The notes beneath the pieces are model-generated. The model ran no database searches and was not told where the DNA came from. It worked only from the letters and a program-made list of their open reading frames with translations. This document shows, piece after piece, positions 45,854-63,269 of a DNA stretch of 64,000 nucleotides. The position numbers and the translations under genes are program-made. This DNA comes from Giardia intestinalis. Its lineage: Eukaryota. The stretch lies in the NCBI GenBank assembly GCA_000002435.2, contig CM018793.1. One strand, written 5' to 3'. Numbering within the stretch: position 1 is the stretch's first letter; each line of letters begins with the position of its first letter.

Positions 45854-48800
45854 TTAGACGGATCTGCTAGACAGAAGAGAGCTGAGAATATAGTGGGATG
45901 GCAGGTCCTTGGAGACGTAGAATAGTGCATCGTTCCCTTGGTTGTCCCGGATCTCTTTCTCTACTAGAAGAAGTCGCGCACAGGCTACATGCCCAGCTTC
46001 ACATGCATACATAAGAGCTGTCCTTCCTTCGGAGTCCTGTAACTTAGCTTGTAACCCAAGAAGATTGAACACTATGTATACATCTCCGTGGGCAGCAGCA
46101 GTCATTAGTTCCGTTCTGCGGTTTCCCTCAGATGAATAGACAGAGATATCTAGACCTTCCCAATTCAAGAGAAGGGTTGCAACTTTCAGATGATCGAGTT
46201 GGAGCGCTATATCTATTGCGCGTTTGCCATCTGAACGTGTCTTTCCTGCTTCAAACTCTGCCAGGTACTTAACAGCGGCAGGCACATTGTACTCAGCTGC
46301 CAGCATAAGAGCAGTCGTCCCGTTCTCCAGAGAGTATCCAATTTGCTGTAAGTTTGCGCCGATTGCCCTCATGTTGCCGGTCATGATGGCCTCCATCAAG
46401 GCAGTCGGATTTTTCAGAGGCTCGTGTGCAGATTGCTCACTGCTTCTAAGGATTGCTGTCACAATTGGAGCAACAGATGGTTTAATTAGACCAATTGAAA
46501 GCTGATCAAGAGGAGACGATGCTGCCACAGGGAATGCATCGAAGGAGTTACTCGATGGGATCTTCTCGTCGCCTGAAGATGTCCTAAGAACTGAAGCTGA
46601 TCTATATTCAGAGAGGGGATGTGACCTGGGCAGAAATACAGATGCTGGCCGTTGAGAAGATGACGCCCGAGATGCACCTGTTGCATGAACCTCGGCCATC
46701 AGCTGAGTGACCTGCCCATCTGCCTGGGCCAGCTGTTCAGTCAGACTCAGAATCTTTCCCTCAAGAAGAGAAACAGTCGGGTCGCCACTCTCTGCTGTAG
46801 GGTGCTTCTTAATATAATGGTCTGCAATTGTTGAAATAACGTTATTTTGGATTGAAATAGATAGATTAAGAATGTCAACCTCATTTGATAGCGCTACGTT
46901 TTCAATGACCAAGGAGTCTATGTCCTCAGACGGATGAGGACGTTGATCTAGAGAGTTTTTAGCTGCATCGTTGTCTAGGCTGCGATCTGCCATCAGCATA
47001 AGTAAATTCTGAAGCCTACCTATCTCAGCATCTTTAGCTAGCAATATATTTGACGCGTAGTGGAGTACAACGGGCTTTCCTGAAAGAGGGGATGGTTCAT
47101 GGAGCTGCTCGGTGGGTAAAGACTCGAACGCATCAGCACTATCACTAGGTTCTGGAGTTGCGTGTCGCGAAATTACATGCGCATCTTTAGAAGAAGAAGA
47201 AGGAGGAGGAGGGTATCTAATTGAGCTCTTAGGACGATCCGTACGTTCAAGTGCTTCCTCTCTCTCCTCTAAAAGATCAGTCGCCTTGGCAAGGGCTTCC
47301 TTTGTCTGGGCCAGCTCGGCACGAAGGTCACGTTCTAGTTCATCATATATATCATAGCACACTGGATCCGGAAGACGCGAGACCATACCATCCTGTGTTT
47401 CAGCCTCAAGGGCCTTCTGCAGCGATACTACTTGCATGGCCAATGCCTCCTCACGAGCAACATACTCCTGAACTACATTATCCAACATGTCATAGATGCC
47501 AGAAATCTTCTCAACAGTGTACTCTGCAAGCCTTTTGGAGACCTCATGAGCTGCAACTTCGTATGAGAGGAAGCCAGGAGGGTCTTGGAGAGGTTCAACC
47601 AGAAGGTCTATGGACACAGATGCATCTACCACATGCGTGGATACAGGGGCTATAGCACTAATGGTATTGGCTGTTGACTCACGCTGCACGGTGTTAGTAT
47701 TAATATTTTCTAACAGAGTTATAAGCCTCTCAATCTCGTCGTCCTTTTTGGCTAATATTTGAGAGTATTCGCGGCTAGAGGCTTGAGCTAGTAGTAGCTG
47801 TGTTGCCTGTAGTTGTGCCTCACGTTGCTCGCCAACGGTTCTTAGTTTGTCATTCTCTGACGTAAGGACTCTAAGTCTGCCTTCTACTTCCGCGATAGAG
47901 TTATCACGAGTTTCCATTGTGCTCTCAATTGTTCTGAGCTTCTCTTGCGTTTCCCGAAGAATATCCATGTCGTCACCATATGTTTGTACTTCTTTAAGTA
48001 GAGCACTGTTATCTGCTGTTAAACGTCTGATTTCGGCCTTGAGCTTATCTATTTCCAATTCTTGTTCGTTGGCAGCGAGCGTCAGTAGCCTGACCTTCTC
48101 TTTCTGGGCGGTAAGTTCATTGGTGGCGTCGGAAGCTGGCAAAGCGAGAGACAGTTGCTCCTCTCTTAGGGATCTAAGACGGAGAATCTCCTCATCCCTT
48201 TCTTGAATGGCAAGTTTCAAAGCGTCGATTTCTGCCTGTTCCGTGTTGATCAGATTGCCTTGATGAAATTGAGAGTTTTGAAGAGATGTGGACCGACACC
48301 TGCCAAACGCAGCTCGGCTTTTGGCTAAGCTGGTCGTGGAATGAACCATACTCGACGGGGTAGTTGCCCTGGACACACTTTTCTTGCTAGACCTAGTGCT
48401 TCGACTATCGGTAAGTTTAATGACTTCACTTTCTCCATCGAGATTGGGGCTGCCATTGAGAACTGCTGGTTGTTCTTGTGCTATGTTAACTGAGTATGCG
48501 CTGATAATATACTTCAAACGATCTATTTCTTCATTTTTCTCCAGTAGTTCTGCTTGCAATGATGTGATAGTAGCGTCCTTAGTTTGAAGCATATCCAAGG
48601 ACGCTTGCTGTGGAAGAGAAACTCCACCAGCACCAATCTGGACCCCTAAAATTGCGTTCAGTCTAGCTGTGGAGCTCTGCCCATCATCTGCATATGCACT
48701 GTCATGAGCATCTAGTACAACTGAGGCTGGCGGTGTAGCGATTCTGGCAACAACATCGCATAGTACTGGAGAGTCTTCTTTCATATCATTGAACACAAAA

Positions 48801-51475
48801 GCAAGGCATTCCTGATCTGCATTTTTAGTGGCGGACCTCTGCAGGCGCTCCTTGAGGTGAGTATTTTCAGCGACCAGCCGTTCATTCGTTGCCTTCAATT
48901 GCTCTAGTAGCTTTTTCATATTAGTAGCGTCATCATATAACGGGGGCGAAGTACATTTGTTCGACTCTCGCGTCAACTTTTCTAACCGATCGTTGTCTGC
49001 TTCTAGACCACGAACTCGCTCTGCCAGAAGCAGGACCTCGTTGGTTAGCCGAACATTTTCATCTGCAAGATCTTGAGGAATGCGCTTGCTTGAAGCAACA
49101 GGGGTCGCTGCTCTACTACGATCCTTTTTCTTCAATCTCCCCAGCGAGAGACTTCTCTTCGAGTTTGTCATGGTGTTGCCCATACTACCCATGCTTGCTT
49201 TTAGATCGTCTAACTCTTGGGTCTTAGTCTCCAGTTCGTCAAGCAACAATTGTATCTGTTTTGGTGACGTTTGTGAATGATCAAGATTGCCTGGATCTAA
49301 GTCAGGCATAGAGTTTATCACCTCACGGAGCCGCTCTATTTCTGCGTCTTTATCAGCAAGTAGTGAGATTAACTCACGTGTAGAGGAGATGGTATCCACA
49401 ACGTCTTCCATAGTAGAAGCACACAGGCTTTCTGACAGGCCCTTTACTCCTACCCTAGAATTGGCAAGAATCTTACAAAGCTTTGAGTCGTCATGTTGCG
49501 GCCTTTCGCTAAGCTCCTTCTTAAGCGTCTCGTTCTCCTTCAGTAGATCCTCCACCTCATGTTCTAAGGCCTTTATTTTATCGGTCAGTGAATCTATTGC
49601 AGCAGGAACAGGCATCTGCACCCTGTGTAGTTCTGTTGCATCCAAGAGCTCCTGAAGCTCGTTAATTTTGGCGGCCTGTTCCGCAATTACTTTGTTCATA
49701 AGCTCTTCCTTGTTAGTTTCGAGGGTCTTTGGGGTGATCGTGCCATCCGTTTCAACTCTAGCCAGCTGTTCTCTGAGAAGATGTATCTCTTTGTCACGCT
49801 CAGCAAGTTGGATGATTGTGTTCTTGCGGTATGCATCAAAGCTAGAAGATGACCGAGTGGTAGCATCCTTGCGCACAGATTTACCACGCCCAAAGAGCGA
49901 GGACGTGCTCAGTCTGTTTGAATTGCGACTCTTGACACTGGACTCTGCCTTCATTTCTTGATATCCTACTGTGGCCTGTAGGTCGCTAACTCCTCGAGAC
50001 TGATATTCGGAGATAAGCTCCTGAAGCATGGCGATAGTATTGTTCTTCTCGTCTATTATCTTGTCGAACTCTTCCGTAGTAACTATGGAGCAAGAGATAG
50101 GAGCGTCTTGCAAATCACCCAAATACTTCCTGTTTTGTCTACTAAATACATTTTCCGAGGGATCTGCGGTGCTTCTTTTTGGCCCGCACATCGGAGGTGT
50201 TCTCGGTCTGGACTTGTCCTTTAGCATGGCGGTGACCGACTTGGACCGACGCCGAGGCTTCTTAGCGCTCGAAGGCCGCAAAAACTCTAAATCCTCATAT
50301 ACTAAAATATCCGTGTTCTTCTGATTCTCTTCTTGAATATAGGGCTCATCAGATAGATGCTTCTGTCCGGTTTGTGCCATTTGCAACATGTGTTGGAGAT
50401 TCATGTTTTCCTGAACGGATAGTGCATACGCATCTTCCAGATGTCTGATCCTTTCCGTTAACTCGGCCATTGCTGATTCATTATCTAGACACGATAAAGC
50501 GTAATTGCCAATGGCTGGAGACGTACCAAACCCAATTGGTGATGTGGCCGTGGCAGTAGCAGCGGGCTCTGTTGTGGGCAAACAATAAGGATAGTTTGCC
50601 TGCTGGAGCTTTAGATTCTCCATCTGCAATGTTATTATCTCATTTTCTTTAATCTGCATAGAGTTGGTGAGCTCTGTGATCTTGTGCCTTAGCATGCTCA
50701 CTGTCTGTCCATGCCTGTCGTTGAAGTCGGTGACAGAGGAGGTTACTGACCCGACATACGACGTAGTCATCTGGGAAGCTGTTAGAGGGTTTTGCTGAGG
50801 AGTCCGCATGGGACTCGGAGATGACTCAGCGGCATAAACAGAGGTTTTGGTCTGAGGTTGAGTTGTGGACGGACGGTGTTTAGATGGAACAAATGCGTGT
50901 ACGTTAGATGTGCGGCGTGCATTATTTTTAAAAGAAACCAGGGCACGTTCAATCTCTAAAAATCTATTCTCTGAGGCCACGTTAATAGCATATTTGAGCT
51001 CGATGTTAGATATTCGCTGTGAGGACAGTATAATATTGACGCAGTCTAGATGACCCGAATTAACAGCATAGTCCAGGGCGTTGAGCCGCGCCTTATCCTG
51101 TCGCAACTTAAAGTTCTTCGTCATCATCAGAAGCGCCGCTGCGGCTCCAACTTGTGCTGCTAGCATGTACGAGTCTCTACCATCGTCGAGAGTGATGTCC
51201 TTCTCCAGGGGCGCCAAAACCTCACACAGGCCCGGATTGTTGGAAAGAGCAGCGACCATGAGAGCCGTGTAACCAGATGTACTAACTAGTCCAGCCTCAT
51301 ACGGGATTAGTATGTGGGCCATTTTTAAGTTCCCAGCGCGACACGCCTGAATGAGAGCAGTATCTCCATCAATGTTAACGTATCCTTTAAAGCTTTCAAC
51401 AAGAGAGCGTACGGTTTCTTGGTCTCCTTGCGCAACAGCGTGGAACCACGCTGCCTCGGAAGGTGATTGAAACAT
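45854..51475 (-). CDS. Ankyrin-repeat / very long coiled-coil protein (Protein 21.1 family), 1873 aa
   Basis: ATG start. The N-terminal 150 aa align position-by-position with the downstream paralogue (WF.A...GD...V..L...G.TAL..AAL.N...LC..LAPLE.DI.L.D.RD.YM.AAQVG...LNALDYA). More than 1000 aa of heptad-rich coiled coil follow. The C-terminal ankyrin cassette is shared with 60429..63269. Confidence 0.8.
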   Translation of the reverse strand: MFQSPSEAAWFHAVAQGDQETVRSLVESFKGYVNIDGDTALIQACRAGNLKMAHILIPYEAGLVSTSGYTALMVAALSNNPGLCEVLAPLEKDITLDDGRDSYMLAAQVGAAAALLMMTKNFKLRQDKARLNALDYAVNSGHLDCVNIILSSQRISNIELKYAINVASENRFLEIERALVSFKNNARRTSNVHAFVPSKHRPSTTQPQTKTSVYAAESSPSPMRTPQQNPLTASQMTTSYVGSVTSSVTDFNDRHGQTVSMLRHKITELTNSMQIKENEIITLQMENLKLQQANYPYCLPTTEPAATATATSPIGFGTSPAIGNYALSCLDNESAMAELTERIRHLEDAYALSVQENMNLQHMLQMAQTGQKHLSDEPYIQEENQKNTDILVYEDLEFLRPSSAKKPRRRSKSVTAMLKDKSRPRTPPMCGPKRSTADPSENVFSRQNRKYLGDLQDAPISCSIVTTEEFDKIIDEKNNTIAMLQELISEYQSRGVSDLQATVGYQEMKAESSVKSRNSNRLSTSSLFGRGKSVRKDATTRSSSSFDAYRKNTIIQLAERDKEIHLLREQLARVETDGTITPKTLETNKEELMNKVIAEQAAKINELQELLDATELHRVQMPVPAAIDSLTDKIKALEHEVEDLLKENETLKKELSERPQHDDSKLCKILANSRVGVKGLSESLCASTMEDVVDTISSTRELISLLADKDAEIERLREVINSMPDLDPGNLDHSQTSPKQIQLLLDELETKTQELDDLKASMGSMGNTMTNSKRSLSLGRLKKKDRSRAATPVASSKRIPQDLADENVRLTNEVLLLAERVRGLEADNDRLEKLTRESNKCTSPPLYDDATNMKKLLEQLKATNERLVAENTHLKERLQRSATKNADQECLAFVFNDMKEDSPVLCDVVARIATPPASVVLDAHDSAYADDGQSSTARLNAILGVQIGAGGVSLPQQASLDMLQTKDATITSLQAELLEKNEEIDRLKYIISAYSVNIAQEQPAVLNGSPNLDGESEVIKLTDSRSTRSSKKSVSRATTPSSMVHSTTSLAKSRAAFGRCRSTSLQNSQFHQGNLINTEQAEIDALKLAIQERDEEILRLRSLREEQLSLALPASDATNELTAQKEKVRLLTLAANEQELEIDKLKAEIRRLTADNSALLKEVQTYGDDMDILRETQEKLRTIESTMETRDNSIAEVEGRLRVLTSENDKLRTVGEQREAQLQATQLLLAQASSREYSQILAKKDDEIERLITLLENINTNTVQRESTANTISAIAPVSTHVVDASVSIDLLVEPLQDPPGFLSYEVAAHEVSKRLAEYTVEKISGIYDMLDNVVQEYVAREEALAMQVVSLQKALEAETQDGMVSRLPDPVCYDIYDELERDLRAELAQTKEALAKATDLLEEREEALERTDRPKSSIRYPPPPSSSSKDAHVISRHATPEPSDSADAFESLPTEQLHEPSPLSGKPVVLHYASNILLAKDAEIGRLQNLLMLMADRSLDNDAAKNSLDQRPHPSEDIDSLVIENVALSNEVDILNLSISIQNNVISTIADHYIKKHPTAESGDPTVSLLEGKILSLTEQLAQADGQVTQLMAEVHATGASRASSSQRPASVFLPRSHPLSEYRSASVLRTSSGDEKIPSSNSFDAFPVAASSPLDQLSIGLIKPSVAPIVTAILRSSEQSAHEPLKNPTALMEAIMTGNMRAIGANLQQIGYSLENGTTALMLAAEYNVPAAVKYLAEFEAGKTRSDGKRAIDIALQLDHLKVATLLLNWEGLDISVYSSEGNRRTELMTAAAHGDVYIVFNLLGLQAKLQDSEGRTALMYACEAGHVACARLLLVEKEIRDNQGNDALFYVSKDLPSHYILSSLLSSRSV

Positions 51476-51498: not shown

Positions 51499-52191
51499 AT
51501 GGAGCTTGTGATAGAACCAGTTAAGCAGCATAGGCGCCAAACTCTGTCCACCCAGGTACGTGAGGGCAGGCAACAAGCAGAGGAGAAAGCCCGTTGTGTA
51601 GATAAGCAAACTGTCGACTGGAGCAACAAATCCTTTGCAACAATTCGATTGCCAGAGCAAAAAACCACTAAGTACGAGGATTGCTGGAGTTCGTTTTCTG
51701 ATACGTATACTGACATTGTGACGTCTGAATTCATAGAGCAAATCGAGAAACAAACTAAAGAACAAATCCGGATTAATGAACTCCCAAGGCAAAGCACTAC
51801 ACCTACAGTCGTCAACATAAATCCACCTTCACCAGAGCGGTCAACTGTCAATCAGAGAGCCTTCAAAAAATTAGCACAACCCCGAACGTATCGAAAAGGA
51901 TATCTGCCAACCAGTACAGTATTGTCTCCGACATTTGCATTTTGCAATAGAAGATACCTAGAGCACAGTCTCTCAAAGAACACAGAATCACCAAAATCAG
52001 AGAAGAAACGTGCGGAGATTATGTCCTGCAAACGATTAGCTCATTCAACGGATATAGCCATTCACTGGCATAAATATGGCGAGCATACAGAGTCAGTTCT
52101 TCATATAAACGCTTTTAGCCATTACGCAGAGCCACGTAAGGCGTCTTATGCTACAGGGACCATAGAGAAATCCGAGAAAGCTCTGGAATAG
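51499..52191 (+). CDS. Hypothetical small basic protein (230 aa), questionable
   Basis: This is the only ORF over 200 aa in the 675-bp spacer between two minus-strand genes. It overlaps the Raptor 3' end by 41 nt. Lys/Glu/Thr-rich with no motifs. It could be a chance ORF. Confidence 0.25.
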   Translation: MELVIEPVKQHRRQTLSTQVREGRQQAEEKARCVDKQTVDWSNKSFATIRLPEQKTTKYEDCWSSFSDTYTDIVTSEFIEQIEKQTKEQIRINELPRQSTTPTVVNINPPSPERSTVNQRAFKKLAQPRTYRKGYLPTSTVLSPTFAFCNRRYLEHSLSKNTESPKSEKKRAEIMSCKRLAHSTDIAIHWHKYGEHTESVLHINAFSHYAEPRKASYATGTIEKSEKALE

Positions 52192-55100
52192 CGATCAATG
52201 GGGCTCGCGGGTGGAATGCAATGCACTGAGGTTCTGTCTGTATGGGCGCTTTGTATGACATTTCACCTAGACACACTCCTGAAACATGTCCAAAAGTGAT
52301 GTTATACGTGAGAATATTCGCTGATTCTGTGTTACCAGGGCTCAAGGGCGTATCTTCTACGCACGAAAATAGCCCAGTATTGTGAAAGTTAACTGTCCTG
52401 GAGCTGGGTATAGAGTACTGCTTCAGTACAGTATCGGTGGCAGTGTCCTTGGACAAGAGTCTGCCAGATGCCGTTGACAAGAAAAGGGTATTGTCATACA
52501 ATGCACCACCATTGATGACCTCCGGGACCTTACCGGTCATAACTGAATTATTGCTTCTGGCATCAAATATGGAGTATTCTTTAGATCCATATGTCAGCAC
52601 TCCACAGCTCAATATGCCTGAGCACAAAGGTACTACATTATCGACAAGGTGGGCAGGCCTAAGTGTCAGGTACTTGGACTCGTGCATGAGATCTATGTAG
52701 CTGACCTCTGTCCCGCCCCGAATGGCAGTCACAATGTGTGGTGCTGTGGTGTGCATCTCTAGAAGGTCTGAATGTCCTCTAAGGATGGGGATGTTATTGG
52801 GCAGCACGGGGGTGTATGTCCACTCACCAACTCGCCTGGCAGATCCAGGTTCGTCTGGCTTCTTCTTTTCATGGAATAACGCGTTGCATATCTTGCTACG
52901 GGCGATAATGTATTGCTTCTTATGATGATTAAGAACAATATCAGGAGAGCTCATGTCTGCATTGAACTTATGTCTATAAAACTCGGCTATTGCATATGGA
53001 CACTTTTGCAGCCTTGTAGACGAGTATAGTGGCTCTGAAGAAGGTGTTCCTACGTTGAACGCGGACGTGTGTCTGCAAAGAGACGTGTCATGATAGTTTG
53101 TAAGAATTCTAACGGTACAATCTGCTGCAGCAATAGCCACCACGCTATGAGGAGTATGCTGGTTCAGAAGGACTATGTCTCCAAGCCAAGCAGATCTATT
53201 TTCCATAGAATATGGGCTTCTTTGCTCTCTGATGAGCTCGGTCATCTTAGAGTATGCGCTAGTCTTATTCTCCAGTGGCACAGCCTCTTCGTCATCGTCC
53301 ATGTCTGGGAAAAGCTTTCTTAGTAGCTTCGGATCAAAGTCTCTTGCCGAAGCAGAGCCTTGCTTGTATAAAATCTTCAGCAGTTGTGAAGAGAAGCTTT
53401 TCAGGACACTATAGTCTAACGACCTTGATGTATTGAGAATGCAGCAGTGGGGACACTCAAGAGATGCTGCATCTGCTTCGAGCATATTAGCTAAGATAAT
53501 TGGCTCAAGGGCTGTGCAATTATCCGTCGCCCAGTTCATCATATTATACGCTTGCGGACCTTGTGGGAAAGCAAGCATTGGGGTATGCAGGTGGCCTGAT
53601 ATTATCCCCCCGCCGGGCCAAGACGTAGGCTGGACGTCCAATATTAGATCAAGTGGTAGCTTATTCAAGAGCTCTCCGGTCGTGGTGTTCCAAACGCAAC
53701 AGGTAGATCCGTTATTCGTAAGCAGAATCGTCTCATTTCGATGAAATACAGCACTTTTAATTGCGCCAGTGCAATGAGAAATAGAGTTGACCTTTTTTAA
53801 CAATAGGGCTGACTTTTCTGAGCAGCGTGCCCCTCCACTGGATTTGTATTCTGCGAAATAGAACGCCCCGTTATCACCTACTCGCCTCTTTAGAACGTCA
53901 CGTACTTCACGTGCCTTCTTCACAGGAGCAAATCTAGAGCTAAGGTGATCTCTTTGCTCGGGATACATTGTGTGAAGTTGTCTTAGAAGATCAACTTCAG
54001 TCATAGCAGTGCAGCTGTTATTGCTTTCCGCATCTGGGAAACTCGTTCGCGAGGTTGCCTGAGAGGGAGCATTTATCTGCCTCAAACTAATCATTGGAAT
54101 AGTTTCGCTGCCTATGCTGTGCGCAGAATCAACTTTTGGAAGCATCTCCATTACAAATAACCCCTCCGGGACAGACTCTGTGGCCAACTTTATAATGGTG
54201 TTGTCTGCTCCTTCTCCGGGCTTTAGTTCCTGTGCATTGCTTTGACTGTTGGGCGAGGACTTTGGAAGTATCTGAAAGGAGCCATCACTGTTTATTGTTA
54301 ATGGCTGAATGTTGGAGCTAATTGACTTCTGAGATAGAAGAGCTGATTTCATCCCTATCTGGTTGTCAGATAGCTTTAAGAATCGAACCTTGCTTAGACT
54401 CTCAGATAACCGATCATAGTCAATATCATTGATTGTAGCAGTGATTCTATTATGCATCTCCATTAGAAAGTTGTTCCTAGTCCATATAAGTGAAGAGTTG
54501 TTATCAGTTGTAAAAAGCGATGTCCTATTTTGTTGGGTGTAACGTAGAATAGGAGATTGCTCTATGCTATTAAGAGATATCATAAGGTAGTTTGAGAAAT
54601 CAAAGAACAAGGCGTGTAGAGCGAGAGAACATACGTATGGAACGAGGTAACCAAAATAAATCTCCTCCATAGGAACTATTAGTTCGTCTCCAAAGTATGC
54701 CTGCGATATCTCACAATACGCCAACGATTCAAGATATGGGAATGGTGATGCAGCCGTTTGCAATTTGAACCGAACAAAGTCGTGTGAAGGCAAAGTGGCA
54801 CTGGTAGATGCGGTTTTCAAGGGTGAGCCAGAGGATTTGCTTTTCAATTCCTTGATGTTTCTTTTCGCTGGTGATGTACTAGTTGAGCTCCTATCTGCTC
54901 TGTTGACCTTTTCGTTATCCTGCATAATTCGTACTCCCAGAGGATTAACATCCCTTGTAATAGTAAACCTTGTAATAGTAAATCTAGAGGAGCTGGTAGG
55001 AAACTGGAGGTTGCTCCTGCTCCATATGCGCATAGCGTCCATACAGTATGTGAGGAGAGGACTAGCCATCGCTGCATTGCGACAGAAATGGCAATAGTGG

Positions 55101-58100
55101 TCTATCACATGCATGCGTTCAAATTTGTCCACCTGGTGTTGCAAGTCATTGAAGTCAGCCTTGCCGGTGCTCTTTGCCAATTCCTCAAAAAGTTGTATGG
55201 GACGGACAAAAAGATTGCCTTTTTTATTATCCCAAGAAGAATATTTTTCACTTTTTAAAAGGTCATGGTCTCTCAGCGTTTGGATTTTAGAAAAGGATGC
55301 GATGTCATTTCCCAGATAACTGGTATTTTTTCGGCGTTGTGACATCAGTGAAAACACATTCGACTTATCACTGCTTAAGGTATTGAGATGCTCCTGTTCT
55401 CGTGAAACTGTGGGTCCAAGTCCACTTCCAGTAAATACTACGGGCGTGGACGGAGAAAGACGCCGTATATCGCTACGGTTTGTTTTCACAGCGCATAGGT
55501 ATCCTTCACAAATGCTTGGCATGTAAGAGCTGAATGATACTCCATGAATGCTCGCGTGGAGAACAGAGTATTCTCTTGGTGGTACTCCTGGAGGAAGAAC
55601 CTCTGTTACCAGCATAGTTTCTAGTTGTGGCGTAGATTGCGTTTCGGGCGCTTCTGGCTTCAGAGTAGTCTTTCTCTTGCTGCAGCTTTTAAGATAGGTG
55701 AGAACAAAGTGAAAGTAAGAGCGTAAACGAGCATGGTCGAATTCTGAGAGTTTTCTTACTTCAAGATCAAACAGGGATGGCCACGGGCTCTGAACGGCGT
55801 CTTTCTCTTGAGATATTGCGGCAGGTGAAGAGATATTCTCAGTGCTATTGAAAATGCGTTCCTTTCTGATAATCCTTTCTTCCATATTCATAGAATTAAA
55901 TTGCAGAGGATCCAGCATAACGGATACAGAATGCTGATAGTGTATCGATGTCGAGGAAATCATTTCTGAACGACTACTACTGCTACATTGCCCAATAGAT
56001 AGCCTAGGCGATCCTGCAAGGTCCTTAACCTTATCAAGAGATAGTAGAGATAGAGAAACCTGTGGGTTAAAGTCCAGACACTTTGTACTTGACGGAGAGA
56101 TGACATAATCCCGCAAGAAAAATGGCAGGCTGGCAAGGGCAGATCGCCCACAAGGACAGCATGCATCGTGCATTCTATAATAGCTGGCTCCACGATCATT
56201 GATGGATAGGAGTGAATGTACAGGACACATCTTCATTGACCGGTGAACTTTCTGCGCCGCGACAGAAGCAGCAGCCTCTATGTTAAAACATATAGAGGGA
56301 AAACGAATGCTGTTTCTGGAGAGAGTAAGAATAACAGATGCACAATTGTAAATCGACGCCACTATCTGAGGCATGCAAATGCGGATTGCCAGCTCTAGCC
56401 ACACGGCATCTAGCTGTTGTAGTAATAAGAACTTCTCTTTGAAAAACTCCAATTCGTGCATATTACACTCGGTTACATCTGATGTGTCCTTTGATTCTGG
56501 CTCAGTAGCAACTAATGTATTATTAATGTCACTTATAGAAATGTCAGATTGATCTGAGTTGCTATCAAAATTGAATGCTTTCCGTTGTTTTATAGAAGTC
56601 GTTACAAAGGAATTCTCAGACGTTTCAGCGCTTTCCGTCGTTCCTGCCGGATATGATTTTGCAGATTGAGAGGTTCCAGGGTTCTTGGAAAATTGGCTCA
56701 TAGACAGACCTTGTGCTTCGGTTGTTTTCAAGGTGATTGCAGCAGTATCTATGCAGACTCCATTAATCTTAACGCTAGTTAGAGGTGATGACTCCAAGTG
56801 GTTATAACACGCTGAGGAAGAGCGCAGAGCTGCGGCTAGGATATGTTTGATCTGTTTCTCTGAGAGATTGCGAACAAGACTGAGCTTCTGTATAATTAGC
56901 CTAACTCGCTGCATGCTCCTATCATTAAATACTTCCCTAACAGCGTTTAATATCTCAGCCTCTGTACTAAGCCTATTAGCAGAAAATCTTTTTTCAAGGT
57001 AATCCTTGCAATTGATGTGGAAGAAGTCATTTGTCATCGGCGTTGTTTGCAATAACAAGCACAGAGCGAGAGACGACACTCCATCAAAGAGATGCCGTGC
57101 TCTAATGGAGATAATCGACACAGGATCATACATTGCTTGCTTAAGTGTGCTATATGTAGTGTGAATAATAGGGTTGACTTGATGAGTCTGGAATCCGTTA
57201 AATATCTTCACATATGCGTTAGAATACATATCATATGCCACTATTAAGTCACTTGTTGCTAGAGCAAGGAAACTTTGAAAGTACAGGGGGATAACACGCG
57301 CAATGCAGCATAGGGCTTCATGTCTGACTAAAGGACTTACGTCATATATGCAGAGCTTAGAAATATTGAGTATAATATCTGGGGGATTCAAGTTGATGCT
57401 CTTATCAGACCCTGCCAAAAAGCTTTCGTTCCAAGTTTCTGACTCCGAGTCGCCCGGATAAAATACATCAACAACCCGATGACAGGCAATGATTGAAATC
57501 AAATCCACAACAGGTAGAGACGAGGTGACAACAGAGATAGCGGCTGCACGTATTTCTGCTGTCATGGATGGCTCAAAGAGCTTCATAAGGATGCCATAGA
57601 TATCGCGGATCTTCCCATAGTTACTTCCATAAGCAACTACGGATTCTGGCTGCTTGAAGTTATCATGTGCAGATGATATCAATTCGTCAGCAGTGAGCAA
57701 TGGCTCTACAGCTTCCTCTACTTGATCCGGCACAAATGTCAAAGAGAACAGCTTTGTTGACGAGCTAAGAAGGTTTGATGAGCTAGTCGCAATCACCATG
57801 CTATTTGAAGTAGGGATTGTTTTAGTGTAGGTATGAAGGGAGGGGCTTGATAGTCTGTTTGATCGTAGCTTTCTAGTATCTGTGACTGTTGTCGTCAGGT
57901 TGTGCATAAGTTCTGAGAGCAGAAGAAGACTCCAAAGCTTAATGTGTTCTGATGCCGAATGGACTAGAATAGCAAGTGCCTCGAGCATATTCTTCTGCAT
58001 TAAACTTTCGCGCATTATTGTGCAACACTCAGAAATGATGCGAGGATCGTCCCCTTGAGTATTCTGTGGCATATAAAAGCCAAACCCGTTTGTTAGGGTT

Positions 58101-60112
58101 GCAGAGCTGGCCTTACAAACAGCTGTCACATTGGAGTTGAGTCCGGTGTGTAATGGCACTTTGGAACGCGATTCTGCAGAAGGAGTCTCACGTGTGCTTA
58201 ATGAAGTGGTGACTGCTGATGTGTGACGAAGACGCGCCTCGAGAACAGCTTGGTCAGTTGTGAGACAGGTCAAGATTATCAGGCATAAGATCCTCATGTC
58301 GGTAGATGTTGTACTCTGCAATAAAAGGTTGCAAAGAACGTCCTCGATGTTCCCTTTGTTGGCTGCCACCCCACTTCCACTACGCCTTTTCGCGATGTTA
58401 ATAATAAGTGGTATTGTAGAATAATTCGCTGTTACAATCTTACAAACTATCAGAATGCAACGGAACTGGTCAGATTCGCACTCCTGAAACGTGTGAACGC
58501 CATGCAAAACTATCTGGAGCAATCGTAATTCTAAGGTGGCCCGAAGGCACCATGGACCCATGTCGATAAAGTGCACAATCAGGTCCAAAGCCTTGCTACG
58601 CAGTTGCTGTATCTTAATACTAATTATTACAAATGGCAAAACATCAGGAATTTCAGTTGATGGATGTGCGTCCAGGAGCCAGAGCTCAAAGGTCCGCAGC
58701 TGGTCCTGCAGGAACGACACCATCAAGTTGGATGTTGGGTCCATTGCTCTCTTCTTAATGAATGATTGATTGGCTGTTGACGAAATAGACGAGGTCTTAG
58801 AGTGCCCACGGAGGTTCAGCTTGGTACTTGCCACTGAGCTTTGGTCGAGACTCTCATTGACCCCTAGCTTGGCTGAGATCTGTGCTCTGTACTTTTCTAG
58901 AGACTTTATCGTTAGAACTGATGACGCTTGTGAGTCCTGTCTAGCTAGAGACCTTTTCTTCGCATCCTTGACTGTTTGCTGCTCGAAGTAGAACGTTAAT
59001 ACACCCAAGTTCATTAGCTTTGCATTACTTGTATAGACACTCGATAAGTTAGCGTTAAAAATGGTGTCAAAGACGTCCCAGAATCGATGAGCGGTTGTAT
59101 CAGGTAAGGAAGGGAGAGATTGAGCCGTTATTCGCAGATCCTTCATGATGCGCTGGGCGAGGATAAACCCAGTGTAAAGTGTACTGACACACTTATCCTG
59201 TCTGTATATCATATTAAATGTATCACGGGGAAGTGAGCTCCATGCAATTGCTTCACAGAGGAGCTTCAATATTTTATTTATGTTGTTAAGGAAGTCCCGT
59301 TTACCGGATTCCTGAAGATATGTATAAACAGATTCGCATTGTTCATATGTGCACGGGGACGAAGTAAACATATATATCTTTCGTATGTATGAGAAAATAT
59401 ACATCTTAACGGGGTTCAGTAGGCATTGTGTAAAAACGTCCGCTGGATAGCAGTTTAGTGAACTCAGCCAGAGGGGCAAACGCTCATTACTGCTTGTTGC
59501 CCCAATCACTAAGATGTTGTCATTGTCTAGTATATCTAATTTTCTAATGGTGTTAATTATGGATCCGGCATAATTGCAATCCAAGACCAGAAGTGCATGA
59601 TCTCCGACAATACGAAGCACATCGTCGATTGATACTAACTGAATTTTCTTTTGTCTGATAGTAGCAGTGTCTGGACCGTCATCATATAACAGAATAGAGC
59701 CTACGGTCGATTGCGAGTCTAACCCGTGGCATATGTAATGTAAGATGGTTCTCTGTGACGACGAAACGTGACTGCTAGTACTGAGACGAAGACTACGCAG
59801 CGTCGGTCGAACTATAAACTTAACCACGTTCTGCCTCTGTATGGAGAGAAGGCTTGTGTAAAGGCGGCGAAACGAAACAGACGTCTGCTCGGCTATTTGA
59901 TCCACCGGAAGGTTCAGAATATCAATATCAGCCTCATATATAGTGTTAACAGTGATTGGAATGTCAATACCTAGTTCTATGGCAGTCAGTATTAAAATCG
60001 TACCGACTTGAGGAGATTGAGAGCTGATGGGCAAAGAGAATGCCTGCATATTTCGTAAGGAGAGAGCATTGAAGCTGTGTCGTTGGCTAGCAAAGAGGAG
60101 GCTGGGTAACAT
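52151..60112 (-). CDS. RPTOR: Raptor (regulatory-associated protein of TOR, TORC1 subunit), greatly expanded (2653 aa)
   Basis: ATG start. The caspase-like RNC domain has a conserved His/Cys dyad context: ILHYICHG (human LFHYNGHG) and LLVLDCNYAG (IFVYDCSNAG). YPADVFTQCLLNPVKMYIF matches LPADLFTSCLTTPIKIAL. AIAWSSLPRDTFNMIYRQDKCVSTLYTGFILAQRIM matches [35 protein letters not shown]. The C-terminal region is plausibly WD40-like. Several long insertions are present relative to metazoan Raptor. Confidence 0.8.
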   Translation of the reverse strand: MLPSLLFASQRHSFNALSLRNMQAFSLPISSQSPQVGTILILTAIELGIDIPITVNTIYEADIDILNLPVDQIAEQTSVSFRRLYTSLLSIQRQNVVKFIVRPTLRSLRLSTSSHVSSSQRTILHYICHGLDSQSTVGSILLYDDGPDTATIRQKKIQLVSIDDVLRIVGDHALLVLDCNYAGSIINTIRKLDILDNDNILVIGATSSNERLPLWLSSLNCYPADVFTQCLLNPVKMYIFSYIRKIYMFTSSPCTYEQCESVYTYLQESGKRDFLNNINKILKLLCEAIAWSSLPRDTFNMIYRQDKCVSTLYTGFILAQRIMKDLRITAQSLPSLPDTTAHRFWDVFDTIFNANLSSVYTSNAKLMNLGVLTFYFEQQTVKDAKKRSLARQDSQASSVLTIKSLEKYRAQISAKLGVNESLDQSSVASTKLNLRGHSKTSSISSTANQSFIKKRAMDPTSNLMVSFLQDQLRTFELWLLDAHPSTEIPDVLPFVIISIKIQQLRSKALDLIVHFIDMGPWCLRATLELRLLQIVLHGVHTFQECESDQFRCILIVCKIVTANYSTIPLIINIAKRRSGSGVAANKGNIEDVLCNLLLQSTTSTDMRILCLIILTCLTTDQAVLEARLRHTSAVTTSLSTRETPSAESRSKVPLHTGLNSNVTAVCKASSATLTNGFGFYMPQNTQGDDPRIISECCTIMRESLMQKNMLEALAILVHSASEHIKLWSLLLLSELMHNLTTTVTDTRKLRSNRLSSPSLHTYTKTIPTSNSMVIATSSSNLLSSSTKLFSLTFVPDQVEEAVEPLLTADELISSAHDNFKQPESVVAYGSNYGKIRDIYGILMKLFEPSMTAEIRAAAISVVTSSLPVVDLISIIACHRVVDVFYPGDSESETWNESFLAGSDKSINLNPPDIILNISKLCIYDVSPLVRHEALCCIARVIPLYFQSFLALATSDLIVAYDMYSNAYVKIFNGFQTHQVNPIIHTTYSTLKQAMYDPVSIISIRARHLFDGVSSLALCLLLQTTPMTNDFFHINCKDYLEKRFSANRLSTEAEILNAVREVFNDRSMQRVRLIIQKLSLVRNLSEKQIKHILAAALRSSSACYNHLESSPLTSVKINGVCIDTAAITLKTTEAQGLSMSQFSKNPGTSQSAKSYPAGTTESAETSENSFVTTSIKQRKAFNFDSNSDQSDISISDINNTLVATEPESKDTSDVTECNMHELEFFKEKFLLLQQLDAVWLELAIRICMPQIVASIYNCASVILTLSRNSIRFPSICFNIEAAASVAAQKVHRSMKMCPVHSLLSINDRGASYYRMHDACCPCGRSALASLPFFLRDYVISPSSTKCLDFNPQVSLSLLSLDKVKDLAGSPRLSIGQCSSSSRSEMISSTSIHYQHSVSVMLDPLQFNSMNMEERIIRKERIFNSTENISSPAAISQEKDAVQSPWPSLFDLEVRKLSEFDHARLRSYFHFVLTYLKSCSKRKTTLKPEAPETQSTPQLETMLVTEVLPPGVPPREYSVLHASIHGVSFSSYMPSICEGYLCAVKTNRSDIRRLSPSTPVVFTGSGLGPTVSREQEHLNTLSSDKSNVFSLMSQRRKNTSYLGNDIASFSKIQTLRDHDLLKSEKYSSWDNKKGNLFVRPIQLFEELAKSTGKADFNDLQHQVDKFERMHVIDHYCHFCRNAAMASPLLTYCMDAMRIWSRSNLQFPTSSSRFTITRFTITRDVNPLGVRIMQDNEKVNRADRSSTSTSPAKRNIKELKSKSSGSPLKTASTSATLPSHDFVRFKLQTAASPFPYLESLAYCEISQAYFGDELIVPMEEIYFGYLVPYVCSLALHALFFDFSNYLMISLNSIEQSPILRYTQQNRTSLFTTDNNSSLIWTRNNFLMEMHNRITATINDIDYDRLSESLSKVRFLKLSDNQIGMKSALLSQKSISSNIQPLTINSDGSFQILPKSSPNSQSNAQELKPGEGADNTIIKLATESVPEGLFVMEMLPKVDSAHSIGSETIPMISLRQINAPSQATSRTSFPDAESNNSCTAMTEVDLLRQLHTMYPEQRDHLSSRFAPVKKAREVRDVLKRRVGDNGAFYFAEYKSSGGARCSEKSALLLKKVNSISHCTGAIKSAVFHRNETILLTNNGSTCCVWNTTTGELLNKLPLDLILDVQPTSWPGGGIISGHLHTPMLAFPQGPQAYNMMNWATDNCTALEPIILANMLEADAASLECPHCCILNTSRSLDYSVLKSFSSQLLKILYKQGSASARDFDPKLLRKLFPDMDDDEEAVPLENKTSAYSKMTELIREQRSPYSMENRSAWLGDIVLLNQHTPHSVVAIAAADCTVRILTNYHDTSLCRHTSAFNVGTPSSEPLYSSTRLQKCPYAIAEFYRHKFNADMSSPDIVLNHHKKQYIIARSKICNALFHEKKKPDEPGSARRVGEWTYTPVLPNNIPILRGHSDLLEMHTTAPHIVTAIRGGTEVSYIDLMHESKYLTLRPAHLVDNVVPLCSGILSCGVLTYGSKEYSIFDARSNNSVMTGKVPEVINGGALYDNTLFLSTASGRLLSKDTATDTVLKQYSIPSSRTVNFHNTGLFSCVEDTPLSPGNTESANILTYNITFGHVSGVCLGEMSYKAPIQTEPQCIAFHPRAPLIAIPELSRISLWSL

Positions 60113-60428: not shown

Positions 60429-63269
60429 ATGCGTCCAGCCAAAAGGGGTAAGTCTCAACTGTCTAAGCAGACTGTTGCTGAATCATCTCCCCCGCAAATA
60501 GCGAATGTGCCTCTGCCGGAGAACAGCACTCAGGCGATAGGCGACCTCTTAGAACGTGGCGCAGATCTTTGCACTGCGTACTCACAACTTGCCGATCAAC
60601 GCACCTCTTTACTCTCTGAACAGTTAGAGCAATGCAGTAACCACGATCTTAAGCGCTACTATAGTCGGCTCAATGAGGAACTGACTCTAATCACCCAGAT
60701 CAGCTCGAGGTTGCGTGCAGATCTTAAGTTCATTGCAGCGCAGTCACAAGGATTAATTGTCATTAGCTCTAAAACCATGTCTGATGACCCAGGGCTCTCA
60801 TACAGTTCTTCTCCACCCAGTAAGATGGATGCGTCTGATAGATGTCATGGGTCAATGACCGAGTCAACGCTCCAGGCGTCGACGCGAAGGTCCACGCGCC
60901 TCACTCCCAGTGAGGTTGAGGACTCCCTGGTTCAGGAGTTTATTAGAAAAGGTAACGCGCCCAGATCTGAGGCCGTCAAGTATGCTAAAATTGCTATATC
61001 ATTTGACCCCTCTGGGTATGCTGTTGGTGGAGACAAGCGGAGCTATAAAGAAGAGTTCATTGCAGCTAACTCTGAAAAAATTAGGTTACACGCAATGTTG
61101 CGAGATTCGGAAGCAGAGGTACAACGCTTGAGGAGCTTGGTTGAGCAAGCGCCATCTGAATTAGAGACAAAGCAGCTCAGAGCCAAGACTGCTATACAGG
61201 AAGACAAGATTAACTCTCTTAGATCAGTTTTGTCAATCAGGGATGCATCTAGGACTCGTGACAGCGTTGGTGAGAGTGCCCCTGCATCTCGTCTCGACCA
61301 TGATTTGGTGGATGAATTAACTAAGGAGAACATGGCTTTAAGAATAGAATTGGATAATCAGATCTCTATTGCTAATGCTCAGAATAAAACACACAAGCAA
61401 GAAGTTAGAAAGTTGCGTGAAAAGATCAGTGCTATGCAAAGTCAAGCGTCTCAGGAAGAGAATAAGCCTCAGTTCAAGGAAGCCTCGACCACACCTCAAG
61501 CTTCGGGGCTGTTTGAATCTACTCTGGGTTGTGATACCGGGTATCCTTGTTCTGATGATGACTCTGTGGACAAGAGCTATGTCGCTGAGCTTGAGGATGA
61601 CTTGACTCGTGCGCTATCTCGCATACAAGCCTTAACGGAGGAGAGGAACGCCCTTCAGGCAGATCTGAATAACAAGCTTTCTGCCAAGGCTGAGACTAAC
61701 CTTACAGCTAACCAAGTCCAGGAATTGGCTGCAAACAACATGATTCTCTCTAACGCTTTAACTGCACAGCACCAGCAGCTGACGGCTGCTTTCGCTGAGC
61801 TGAATCAAAAGAACGCCGATCAGCTTGTCCTGCAAAATACCATTCAACAGTTGACAGCTCAGCGTGATTACAACTCTCAAGCAATACAGGCGGAGATGAG
61901 TTCAAAACTAGATGCACAGATCAAGCTATACACAGAGCTTAAGGCTAATTATGAAAGTGCATTGGAGCTTATACAACAGCGCGATGACACTATTCTTCAG
62001 ATGTCAAATGATCTTTCCTCAAATGATAGGGTCACCATGCGCTGTGATAGAGACAATGCACGGCTAGAGCTTAAGGAGTGCAACCAGCAGCTTACTGAAA
62101 CAAAGCGACTACTACAGATGGTCACAGAGGCCATGGGGTATGAAGGCGGCTTCCCAACCACAACTGATGTTGAGCTTTGCGTTTCTCAGCACCAAAGGGA
62201 CAAAGAAAAGAAAACAATGCTAGAAACTGAGTATGCCTTGGCAAAACGAAAAATAGATAGTCTGGAAAAGGAATTGGCTGAGCTTAAGTCAAGTAGAGAC
62301 AGTCTGCAAAGCGCTATCCCCCCTAAGGTAACCCCGGCCAGTGCTATTTCCGCAGCTATTGCAGGTAGCAATGAAATCATTACTCCCCAGGATGCACAGC
62401 GATGTAATACACTATCTAATACTCTCACAGTTGCCCAAGGAATTCCTGGAAGTGCGACTGATTTGATTCGTAGCATGCGGGTCACTGGGGCCGACTTAGC
62501 ATCGTTTCGGACTTCTTCCGTCCGTACCACCAACAAAGCTGGGGTCGCATATGCAAGTTGTGAAATTCTCAATAGTTACACGCCGTTAATGAAAGCAATC
62601 ATAGCCGGAAATAACAGTGCGGTTTCACAAACTATTAGCTTCATAGGAAAGGCGGCGCTTGACGGCACAACAGCCCTCATGCTAGCCGCAATATATGACA
62701 ATAAAGAGGCGGTAGAGATATTAGCACCCCACGAAGCGATGATGAAGAGAAACGACGGAGCCACCGCGCTTAAGTTGGCTTTGCAGACACGACACCTAGG
62801 TCCAGCATCGATCCTGCTTAATTATGAGGGACCTACACTTCCTAAACAATTGCCGGGCTATCCACGTGAGGTAACTGCTTTGATGAAGGCTGCAGAGTTA
62901 GGTGATGTGGTGCTGGTATTTAGCTTGCTCGCTTCTCAAGCTGGGGCGAAGGATGCAGATGGAAGGACGGCTCTGATGAGGGCTGCACGAGCTGGGTTTG
63001 CAGACATAGTGTGGTTGCTAGCTCCACAGGAAGCTGGAATGCAGCTCATTAACGACACAGAGCTTGGCCCGGGCTCAACCGCACTGATGCTGGCTGCAAA
63101 TCAAGGACACCTCGAGTGCGTGAAGCTTCTAATTGCTAGCGAGCGAAAGTATAAGAATAATCTGAACTACGATGCTCTTTTCTATGCTCAGAGTTCTGCA
63201 TCTCATGTCTCCCCGGAGGATAGAGCTTCTATCATCGCTTTGTTAGAAGAAGGGTCTGGCACCCACTAA
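60429..63269 (+). CDS. Coiled-coil protein with C-terminal ankyrin repeats (Protein 21.1 family), 946 aa
   Basis: ATG start. It has about 600 aa of coiled coil. The C-terminal ankyrin cassette (TPLMKAIIAGNNSAV...GTTALMLAAIYDN...REVTALMKAAELGDVVLVFSLL...DGRTALMRAARAG...DALFYAQ) is nearly collinear with the C-terminus of 45854..51475. Confidence 0.8.
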   Translation: MRPAKRGKSQLSKQTVAESSPPQIANVPLPENSTQAIGDLLERGADLCTAYSQLADQRTSLLSEQLEQCSNHDLKRYYSRLNEELTLITQISSRLRADLKFIAAQSQGLIVISSKTMSDDPGLSYSSSPPSKMDASDRCHGSMTESTLQASTRRSTRLTPSEVEDSLVQEFIRKGNAPRSEAVKYAKIAISFDPSGYAVGGDKRSYKEEFIAANSEKIRLHAMLRDSEAEVQRLRSLVEQAPSELETKQLRAKTAIQEDKINSLRSVLSIRDASRTRDSVGESAPASRLDHDLVDELTKENMALRIELDNQISIANAQNKTHKQEVRKLREKISAMQSQASQEENKPQFKEASTTPQASGLFESTLGCDTGYPCSDDDSVDKSYVAELEDDLTRALSRIQALTEERNALQADLNNKLSAKAETNLTANQVQELAANNMILSNALTAQHQQLTAAFAELNQKNADQLVLQNTIQQLTAQRDYNSQAIQAEMSSKLDAQIKLYTELKANYESALELIQQRDDTILQMSNDLSSNDRVTMRCDRDNARLELKECNQQLTETKRLLQMVTEAMGYEGGFPTTTDVELCVSQHQRDKEKKTMLETEYALAKRKIDSLEKELAELKSSRDSLQSAIPPKVTPASAISAAIAGSNEIITPQDAQRCNTLSNTLTVAQGIPGSATDLIRSMRVTGADLASFRTSSVRTTNKAGVAYASCEILNSYTPLMKAIIAGNNSAVSQTISFIGKAALDGTTALMLAAIYDNKEAVEILAPHEAMMKRNDGATALKLALQTRHLGPASILLNYEGPTLPKQLPGYPREVTALMKAAELGDVVLVFSLLASQAGAKDADGRTALMRAARAGFADIVWLLAPQEAGMQLINDTELGPGSTALMLAANQGHLECVKLLIASERKYKNNLNYDALFYAQSSASHVSPEDRASIIALLEEGSGTH

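Follow-up and report, generated by a model that had tools for sequence, protein, structure and literature searches.

A complete, uninterrupted open reading frame (ORF) with an ATG start codon lies at 52151..60112 on the minus strand of the window, i.e., the whole 64,000-nucleotide stretch of Giardia intestinalis contig CM018793.1 analyzed here, and encodes 2653 amino acids (aa) plus a stop codon. No competing long ORF was found at this locus (window 52151-60112). The protein agrees at every residue with P0127, i.e., XP_001709361.1 (GL50803_0016734 or GL50803_16734; UniProt A8B621) of Giardia intestinalis WB clone C6, and the window is therefore from Giardia assemblage A (WB). The gene is very probably the Raptor/KOG1 orthologue of this organism, a predicted substrate-recruiting scaffold subunit of TORC1 with its parts in the canonical order; binding to TOR and scaffolding are putative functions. 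Neither the gene nor its Raptor identity is new, as both are already public. In 2023, A8B621 was assigned to a GTOR/RAPTOR/LST8 complex (GTORC1) as its RAPTOR-like subunit, with similarities of 40-44% to its yeast and human counterparts and a STRING-based prediction of association with TOR and LST8, and it is the single RAPTOR-like protein given for Giardia (PMC10418948). This is a known gene of ordinary identity, with a modestly interesting architecture that is apparently undescribed: a constrained replacement, ~1000 aa long, of the usual linker and three conserved Cys/His clusters.

The RNC (Raptor N-terminal conserved) region, with a caspase-like fold, spans aa 29-360 (59033..60028; all coordinates given for the Raptor gene refer to the minus strand) and was strongly matched by Pfam, phmmer, and hhalign. 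Pfam Raptor_N (PF14538) matched aa 42-188 with 47.5 bits against a cutoff of 27 (E=2e-12; profile positions 9-150 of 151) and was also above the cutoff in two distant relatives, P0005 and P0160. No other caspase-like or peptidase family, including Peptidase_C14, was found at E<=1 in the Pfam scan, which leaves Raptor_N as the only caspase-like family to which the N terminus can be assigned. All eight matches among PDB sequences, with E values from 2e-29 to 5e-23, were Raptor or Kog1 proteins of human, Arabidopsis, Chaetomium, and yeast. The best was human RPTOR (E=2.4e-29, phmmer), with aa 29-359 aligned to RPTOR 51-393 and aa 466-537 aligned to RPTOR 407-478. Comparison by hhalign with a profile of 39 Raptors (38 fungal sequences and P0007) gave 99.9% probability over aa ~41-620 (fungal 43-593), and homology to Raptor continues well beyond the Pfam domain, into the ARM repeats. 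Identity to canonical Raptors is low, ~20-25% even in the RNC domain. The first-pass annotation had recognized Raptor from a few motifs, which lie at aa 125-130 (HYICHG), 177-183 (LDCNYAG), 223 (PADVFTQCLLNPVK), 289 (IAWSSLPRDTF), and 317 (ILAQRIM), and the profile searches bear out this identification.

The RNC domain and its His/Cys dyad are shared with the Raptors of solved structure, i.e., human RPTOR (PDB 5H64 chain B), yeast Kog1 (7PQH), Arabidopsis RAPTOR1 (5WBI), and Chaetomium Raptor (6ZPN). Other blocks common to Giardia and these proteins are “PADxFT.CL..P,” “IAW..LPR..F...RQD,” and the first ARM repeats. They probably also have in common HEAT motifs of the type “D..P.VR..A” and, at the C terminus, a putative WD-like domain ending in “FHP...L.A......I..W/Y.” Fungal Raptors have a long loop after the dyad Cys, which is absent from the Giardia RNC domain.

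The dyad was also correctly placed by the first-pass annotation: His129 (59726..59728) and Cys179 (59576..59578) align with H153 and C196 of human RPTOR. Cys179 is invariant in Giardia, P0005, and P0160, and the complete dyad is kept in all Giardia lineages and in P0005, which could be read as the mark of an active caspase-like protease. We consider such activity highly improbable: the dyad His is changed in P0160 (HYISRN) and in P0161 (HYIGFG), and both His and Cys are missing from P0007, while the remainder of the RNC domain is still conserved in all three, and no peptidase family was matched. With the His lost from three Raptor_N proteins, P0160 among them, conservation of the dyad in Giardia is real but weak evidence for catalysis. 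The dyad is probably not catalytic, and a structural or substrate-binding role of the domain that carries it fits better. We know of no report of proteolytic activity for any Raptor. The caspase-like fold of Raptor has been discussed only as a possible binder of the TOS motif (PMC5745459).

A poorly conserved linker, insert A (aa 361-465; 58718..59032), separates the RNC domain from the first ARM repeat. This insert of ~105 aa distinguishes the Giardia protein from canonical Raptors; its equivalents comprise ~14 aa in human RPTOR, ~11 aa in P0160, and ~182 aa in P0005. It is followed by a predicted ARM/HEAT alpha-solenoid (aa 466-~1100; 56813..58717), for which the evidence is strong up to aa 620 and weak beyond. 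Canonical HEAT motifs, “SMTAEIRAAAISV” and “DVSPLVRHEALCCI,” are found at aa 848-945 within a weak HEAT match (aa 823-952 versus fungal 637-748; E=0.006), in which “SMTAEIRAAA” and “DVSPLVRHE” of Giardia are paired with fungal “ATEVRAAA” and “DASPMCRKE,” respectively. The mid region scored P=0.0026 against the ARM profile, compared with 0.07 for a noncognate control. Pfam HEAT had no match in the Giardia protein and a weak one in P0160 (E=0.0015).

The C-terminal part (aa 2107-2653; 52154..53794) is likely, though not proven, to be a WD40-like beta-propeller domain, ~230 aa longer than that of human RPTOR. Pfam WD40 found one subthreshold repeat (aa 2109-2142; E=0.15), and WD40 proteins made up most of the subthreshold matches in a PDB search with the C-terminal 570 aa. 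When P0160 was added to the hhalign comparison, the C terminus aligned collinearly, end to end, with the fungal Raptor WD region (P=9e-4; ARM control, P=0.72). More generally, HEAT and WD40 matches to the cognate fungal domains had P values of ~1e-3 to 3e-3, compared with 0.07 to 0.7 for noncognate pairings. Putative blades 1 (aa 2113-2150) and 2 (aa 2295-2340) correspond to fungal 1149-1187 and 1184-1228; they are adjacent in the fungal protein and ~145 aa apart in Giardia. The intervening insert, estimated from the alignments at ~145-160 aa (aa 2151-2294; 53231..53662), is absent from canonical Raptors. One further match, TOD1_MUCI70, obtained when the orthologues' C-terminal halves and the modules described below were scanned against Pfam (E=0.007-0.013, under its own cutoff), was dismissed as being at chance level. 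The domain map sought by the first-pass annotation was thus recovered in part, clearly for the RNC region and aa 466-620 and weakly for HEAT repeats beyond aa 620 and for the WD40 region.

At 2653 aa, the protein is 1.99 times as long as human RPTOR (1335 aa), in agreement with the earlier estimate of about twice metazoan length; the other solved chains have 1287-1608 aa. Positions of the excess, computed from alignment anchors, were also as first described, between the conserved blocks and towards the C terminus. Relative to human RPTOR, the excess amounts to ~+59 aa ahead of the first ARM repeat, ~+1028 aa from RPTOR 478 to WD blade 1, and ~+231 aa within the C-terminal domain. Compared with a 1482-aa fungal Raptor, the protein has 1171 extra residues, of which ~760 fall in the interval from the last recognizable HEAT motif (aa ~952) to WD blade 1 (aa ~2113). 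Most of the excess falls in a middle region (aa 1101-2106; 53795..56812) in which profile searches and Pfam detected no similarity to canonical Raptors. When 1.84 billion representative proteins were searched exhaustively with HMMER, a profile built on aa 620-1819 matched only Giardia, P0005, two fragments (P0158 and P0159), and P0160, and no canonical Raptor; the middle region may therefore be either lineage specific or diverged past detection by HMMER. Replacement of the usual HEAT-to-WD40 linker of ~300-400 aa by ~1000-1150 aa is the main source of the doubling; further inserts follow the RNC domain, interrupt the solenoid, and separate propeller blades. Tandem repeats were rejected as a source of the expansion, as the only one in the ORF is a perfect 15-bp x2 duplication.

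An ORF of this size could be an artefact in which a Raptor_N gene and a WD-repeat gene were joined by a sequencing or assembly frameshift. Significant matches to canonical Raptors are limited to the first ~620 aa, and NCBI names differ between copies of the protein (“WD-repeat family protein” for one and “hypothetical protein” for another), as might be expected of such a fusion. Nevertheless, the artefact has next to no probability and is effectively refuted. Orthologues in three more Giardia lineages have 2643, 2644, and 2648 aa and are 70-74% identical to the WB protein and 72-80% identical to each other; one is GL50581_4393 of assemblage B, which UniRef names “Raptor N-terminal CASPase-like domain-containing protein.” The four proteins, from independent assemblies, form the same uninterrupted ORF and align in 2657 columns, with almost no indels, and the reading frame is under selection over its entire length. 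In addition, P0005 and P0160, from very different genomes, join an RNC N terminus to the same C terminus in a single ORF. Finally, the ORF belongs to a sequence cluster with 32 members, and 38 contigs carry the identical sequence. A fusion of two genes, which the first-pass annotation had itself raised, can be set aside, and the doubled length is a genuine feature, ancestral to the Giardia lineage.

Comparison of these lineages indicated how the added sequence evolves. Synonymous divergence (pS) was 0.60-0.75, i.e., saturated, nonsynonymous divergence (pN) was 0.04-0.31, and pN/pS was 0.06-0.45 in every 100-aa window, extra regions included (0.10-0.45 in the middle region, aa 1101-2106). The added sequence is translated and under purifying selection. 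It might still be neutral filler, i.e., a disordered, drifting linker, since several stretches rich in S, T, N, and Q are poorly conserved (aa 1121-1200, 1361-1440, 1721-1760, and 2001-2040), total length among the relatives spans 1941 to 3621 aa, and AlphaFold confidence is low throughout. We consider this improbable, because pN/pS never exceeded 0.45, indels are almost absent between lineages whose synonymous sites are saturated, and conserved blocks and invariant Cys/His clusters are found within the extra regions. Hydrophobic content there is also mostly ordinary, at 0.3-0.5, and about four 40-aa windows are linker-like.

The two distant relatives provide a wider comparison. P0005 is a 3621-aa protein (locus L001:10001-20866) from a genome of 62-70% G+C (run SRR31929897) and shares with the Giardia protein seven collinear blocks that span the RNC domain through the last WD blade. 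P0160, a Q/N-rich Raptor_N protein of 1941 aa, is likewise collinear over this range and, to judge from its composition, is probably from a hexamitid-type diplomonad reading TAA/TAG as Gln. A word-indexed homologue search with a five-sequence profile brought in one more Raptor_N protein, the weak match P0161, and no new sequence from diplomonads. The RNC, ARM/HEAT, and WD-like regions of both relatives are collinear with those of Giardia, as are two modules of the middle region; in the comparison of inserts that the first-pass annotation had suggested, linkers of variable length lie between shared modules. The relatives differ from the Giardia protein by up to 1700 aa in length, through linkers that have expanded or contracted, and in single residues, the dyad His being absent from P0160 and the third module 2 Cys from P0005.

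Three modules are common to Giardia, P0005, and P0160. Module 1 (aa 1216-1350; 56063..56467) has the core C1296-P-x-H1299 ... H1315 ... C1319-P-C1321-G (window 56147-56227). Module 2 (aa 1660-1840; 54593..55135) contains C1674-x-x-C1677-R ... L-L-x-x-C1690, “TRDVNPLG” (aa 1719-1726), and “SPFPYLE..AYC1800.” Module 3 occupies the loop between blades 1 and 2 (aa 2151-2294), with H2174-x-H2176 ... C2220-x-x-C2223. The three Cys/His clusters and “TRDV” (aa 1719-1722) are invariant across the three groups, as are all three C-x(1-2)-C motifs of the whole protein. Cys is the most conserved residue type, with 11 of 62 invariant versus 182 of 2653 positions overall (hypergeometric P=0.003). A Pfam scan of the middle region and of the individual modules gave no family match, and no conserved CxxC was seen in the fungal Raptors examined.

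The arrangement of these residues suggests that the clusters are structural zinc sites stabilizing lineage-specific modules, with the proposed patterns CPxH...CxC, CxxC...C, and HxH...CxxC. Metal-binding modules of this kind were not found in the fungal Raptors examined and, to our knowledge, are not known in any other Raptor. We tentatively propose, while considering it rather doubtful, that in diplomonad-type Raptors the normally disordered HEAT-to-WD40 linker and one propeller loop became folded modules with up to three zinc sites, providing docking surfaces that replace the missing Rag/Rheb inputs in a minimal TORC1. By analogy with TORC1 structures already solved, the RNC domain and the ARM/HEAT solenoid would serve for docking on TOR and presenting substrates, followed by the WD40-like propeller at the C terminus, while the three short Cys/His clusters shared with distant relatives would stabilize the lineage-specific modules, to which partners may dock. 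The first-pass annotation had suggested lineage-specific interaction surfaces; constraint and shared modules are observed, and binding by them is a hypothesis.

Participation in TORC1 can be considered in the light of what is known of the pathway. Giardia is often cited for its genomic minimalism. It has no clear RHEB/TSC or RAG/GATOR1 inputs to TORC1 (PMC5745459). The predicted partner subunit, Giardia TOR (GTOR), which belongs to a different protein family from Raptor (PIKK kinases), has been described and is also enlarged (363 kDa versus 289 kDa in humans), and LST8 is present as well (PMC10418948). An alternative is that A8B621 is derived from Raptor but no longer a TORC1 subunit, its RNC/ARM core having been co-opted into some other large scaffold defined by the diplomonad-specific modules. 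Such co-option could account for ~1000 aa without a counterpart in canonical Raptors in a lineage without the usual inputs, and the searched literature gave no biochemical link to GTOR. It nevertheless appears unlikely. The RNC and ARM/HEAT regions, which contact TOR in solved TORC1 structures, are the best conserved here, the canonical domain order is kept, both GTOR and LST8 are present, and RAPTOR occurs in every eukaryote with functional TOR except ciliates (PMC5745459). A TORC1 scaffold remains the preferred interpretation, and a double-size Raptor with conserved modules is a plausible place to seek the input of nutrient or encystation signals to TOR. Parasite-specific surfaces on the scaffold of an essential pathway could also be of interest as drug targets.

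Several points weigh against this interpretation. First, beyond aa ~620, homology to canonical Raptor is suggested by weak profile-profile scores and resemblance of motifs. Second, profile searches against Pfam and PDB gave nothing significant for the C terminus, and a profile of the whole family was significant against PDB sequences only for the N-terminal Raptor match. Third, the AlphaFold2 models are unusable, hence there is no fold-level confirmation: both were built from four-sequence alignments, and their mean pLDDT (predicted local distance difference test) values of 30.6 (aa 380-1579) and 28.4 (aa 1454-2653) are too low for fold comparison. A pLDDT of 50-65 was reached only around the HEAT motifs (aa ~819-939) and, within the putative propeller, at aa ~2503-2573, which is consistent with the domain map but no evidence for it. 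The solenoid was modeled as all helical; in the low-confidence model of aa 1454-2653, beta strands are confined to the C-terminal WD40-like region. Fourth, zinc binding by the clusters is proposed from the sequence pattern alone. Finally, the searched literature held no experimental evidence that A8B621 binds GTOR.

This study adds a domain map of the protein, proof that its extra length is real and selected, and the three conserved Cys/His clusters. No paper on the length or inserts of Giardia Raptor was found in a literature search of incomplete coverage, and a survey of TOR components from 2026 names Giardia in one place without taking up the length of its Raptor.

The start codon and one recent change in the gene can also be considered. 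Met22 is taken as the start in many automated gene models (P0001 and others; 2632 aa). Because aa 1-21 (window 60050-60112) are conserved in all four Giardia lineages, and recognizable in P0005, Met1 is likelier to be the start than Met22. The 15-bp duplication lies at window 54953-54982 and encodes “FTITRFTITR” (aa ~1710-1719), immediately upstream of the conserved “TRDVNPLG.” Other Giardia lineages each have a single, differing 5-aa copy at this site, which indicates that the duplication is a recent in-frame event in the WB-type sequence.

Raptor is flanked by genes for two ankyrin-repeat proteins, of 1873 aa (45854-51475, minus strand) and 946 aa (60429-63269, plus strand); such neighbors are typical of Giardia. 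A 230-aa ORF at 51499-52191 (plus strand) is convergent to Raptor, with an overlap of 41 nucleotides at the 3' end of Raptor that is created by a C-terminal extension of ~24 aa in the WB version of this ORF. The ORF has no Pfam match and is found at the equivalent position in the three other Giardia lineages, with 39-50% identity. The order of ankyrin gene, Raptor, small convergent ORF, and large ankyrin gene is the same in all four lineages; the gene order around P0005, as far as it is visible, is not that of the Giardia locus.

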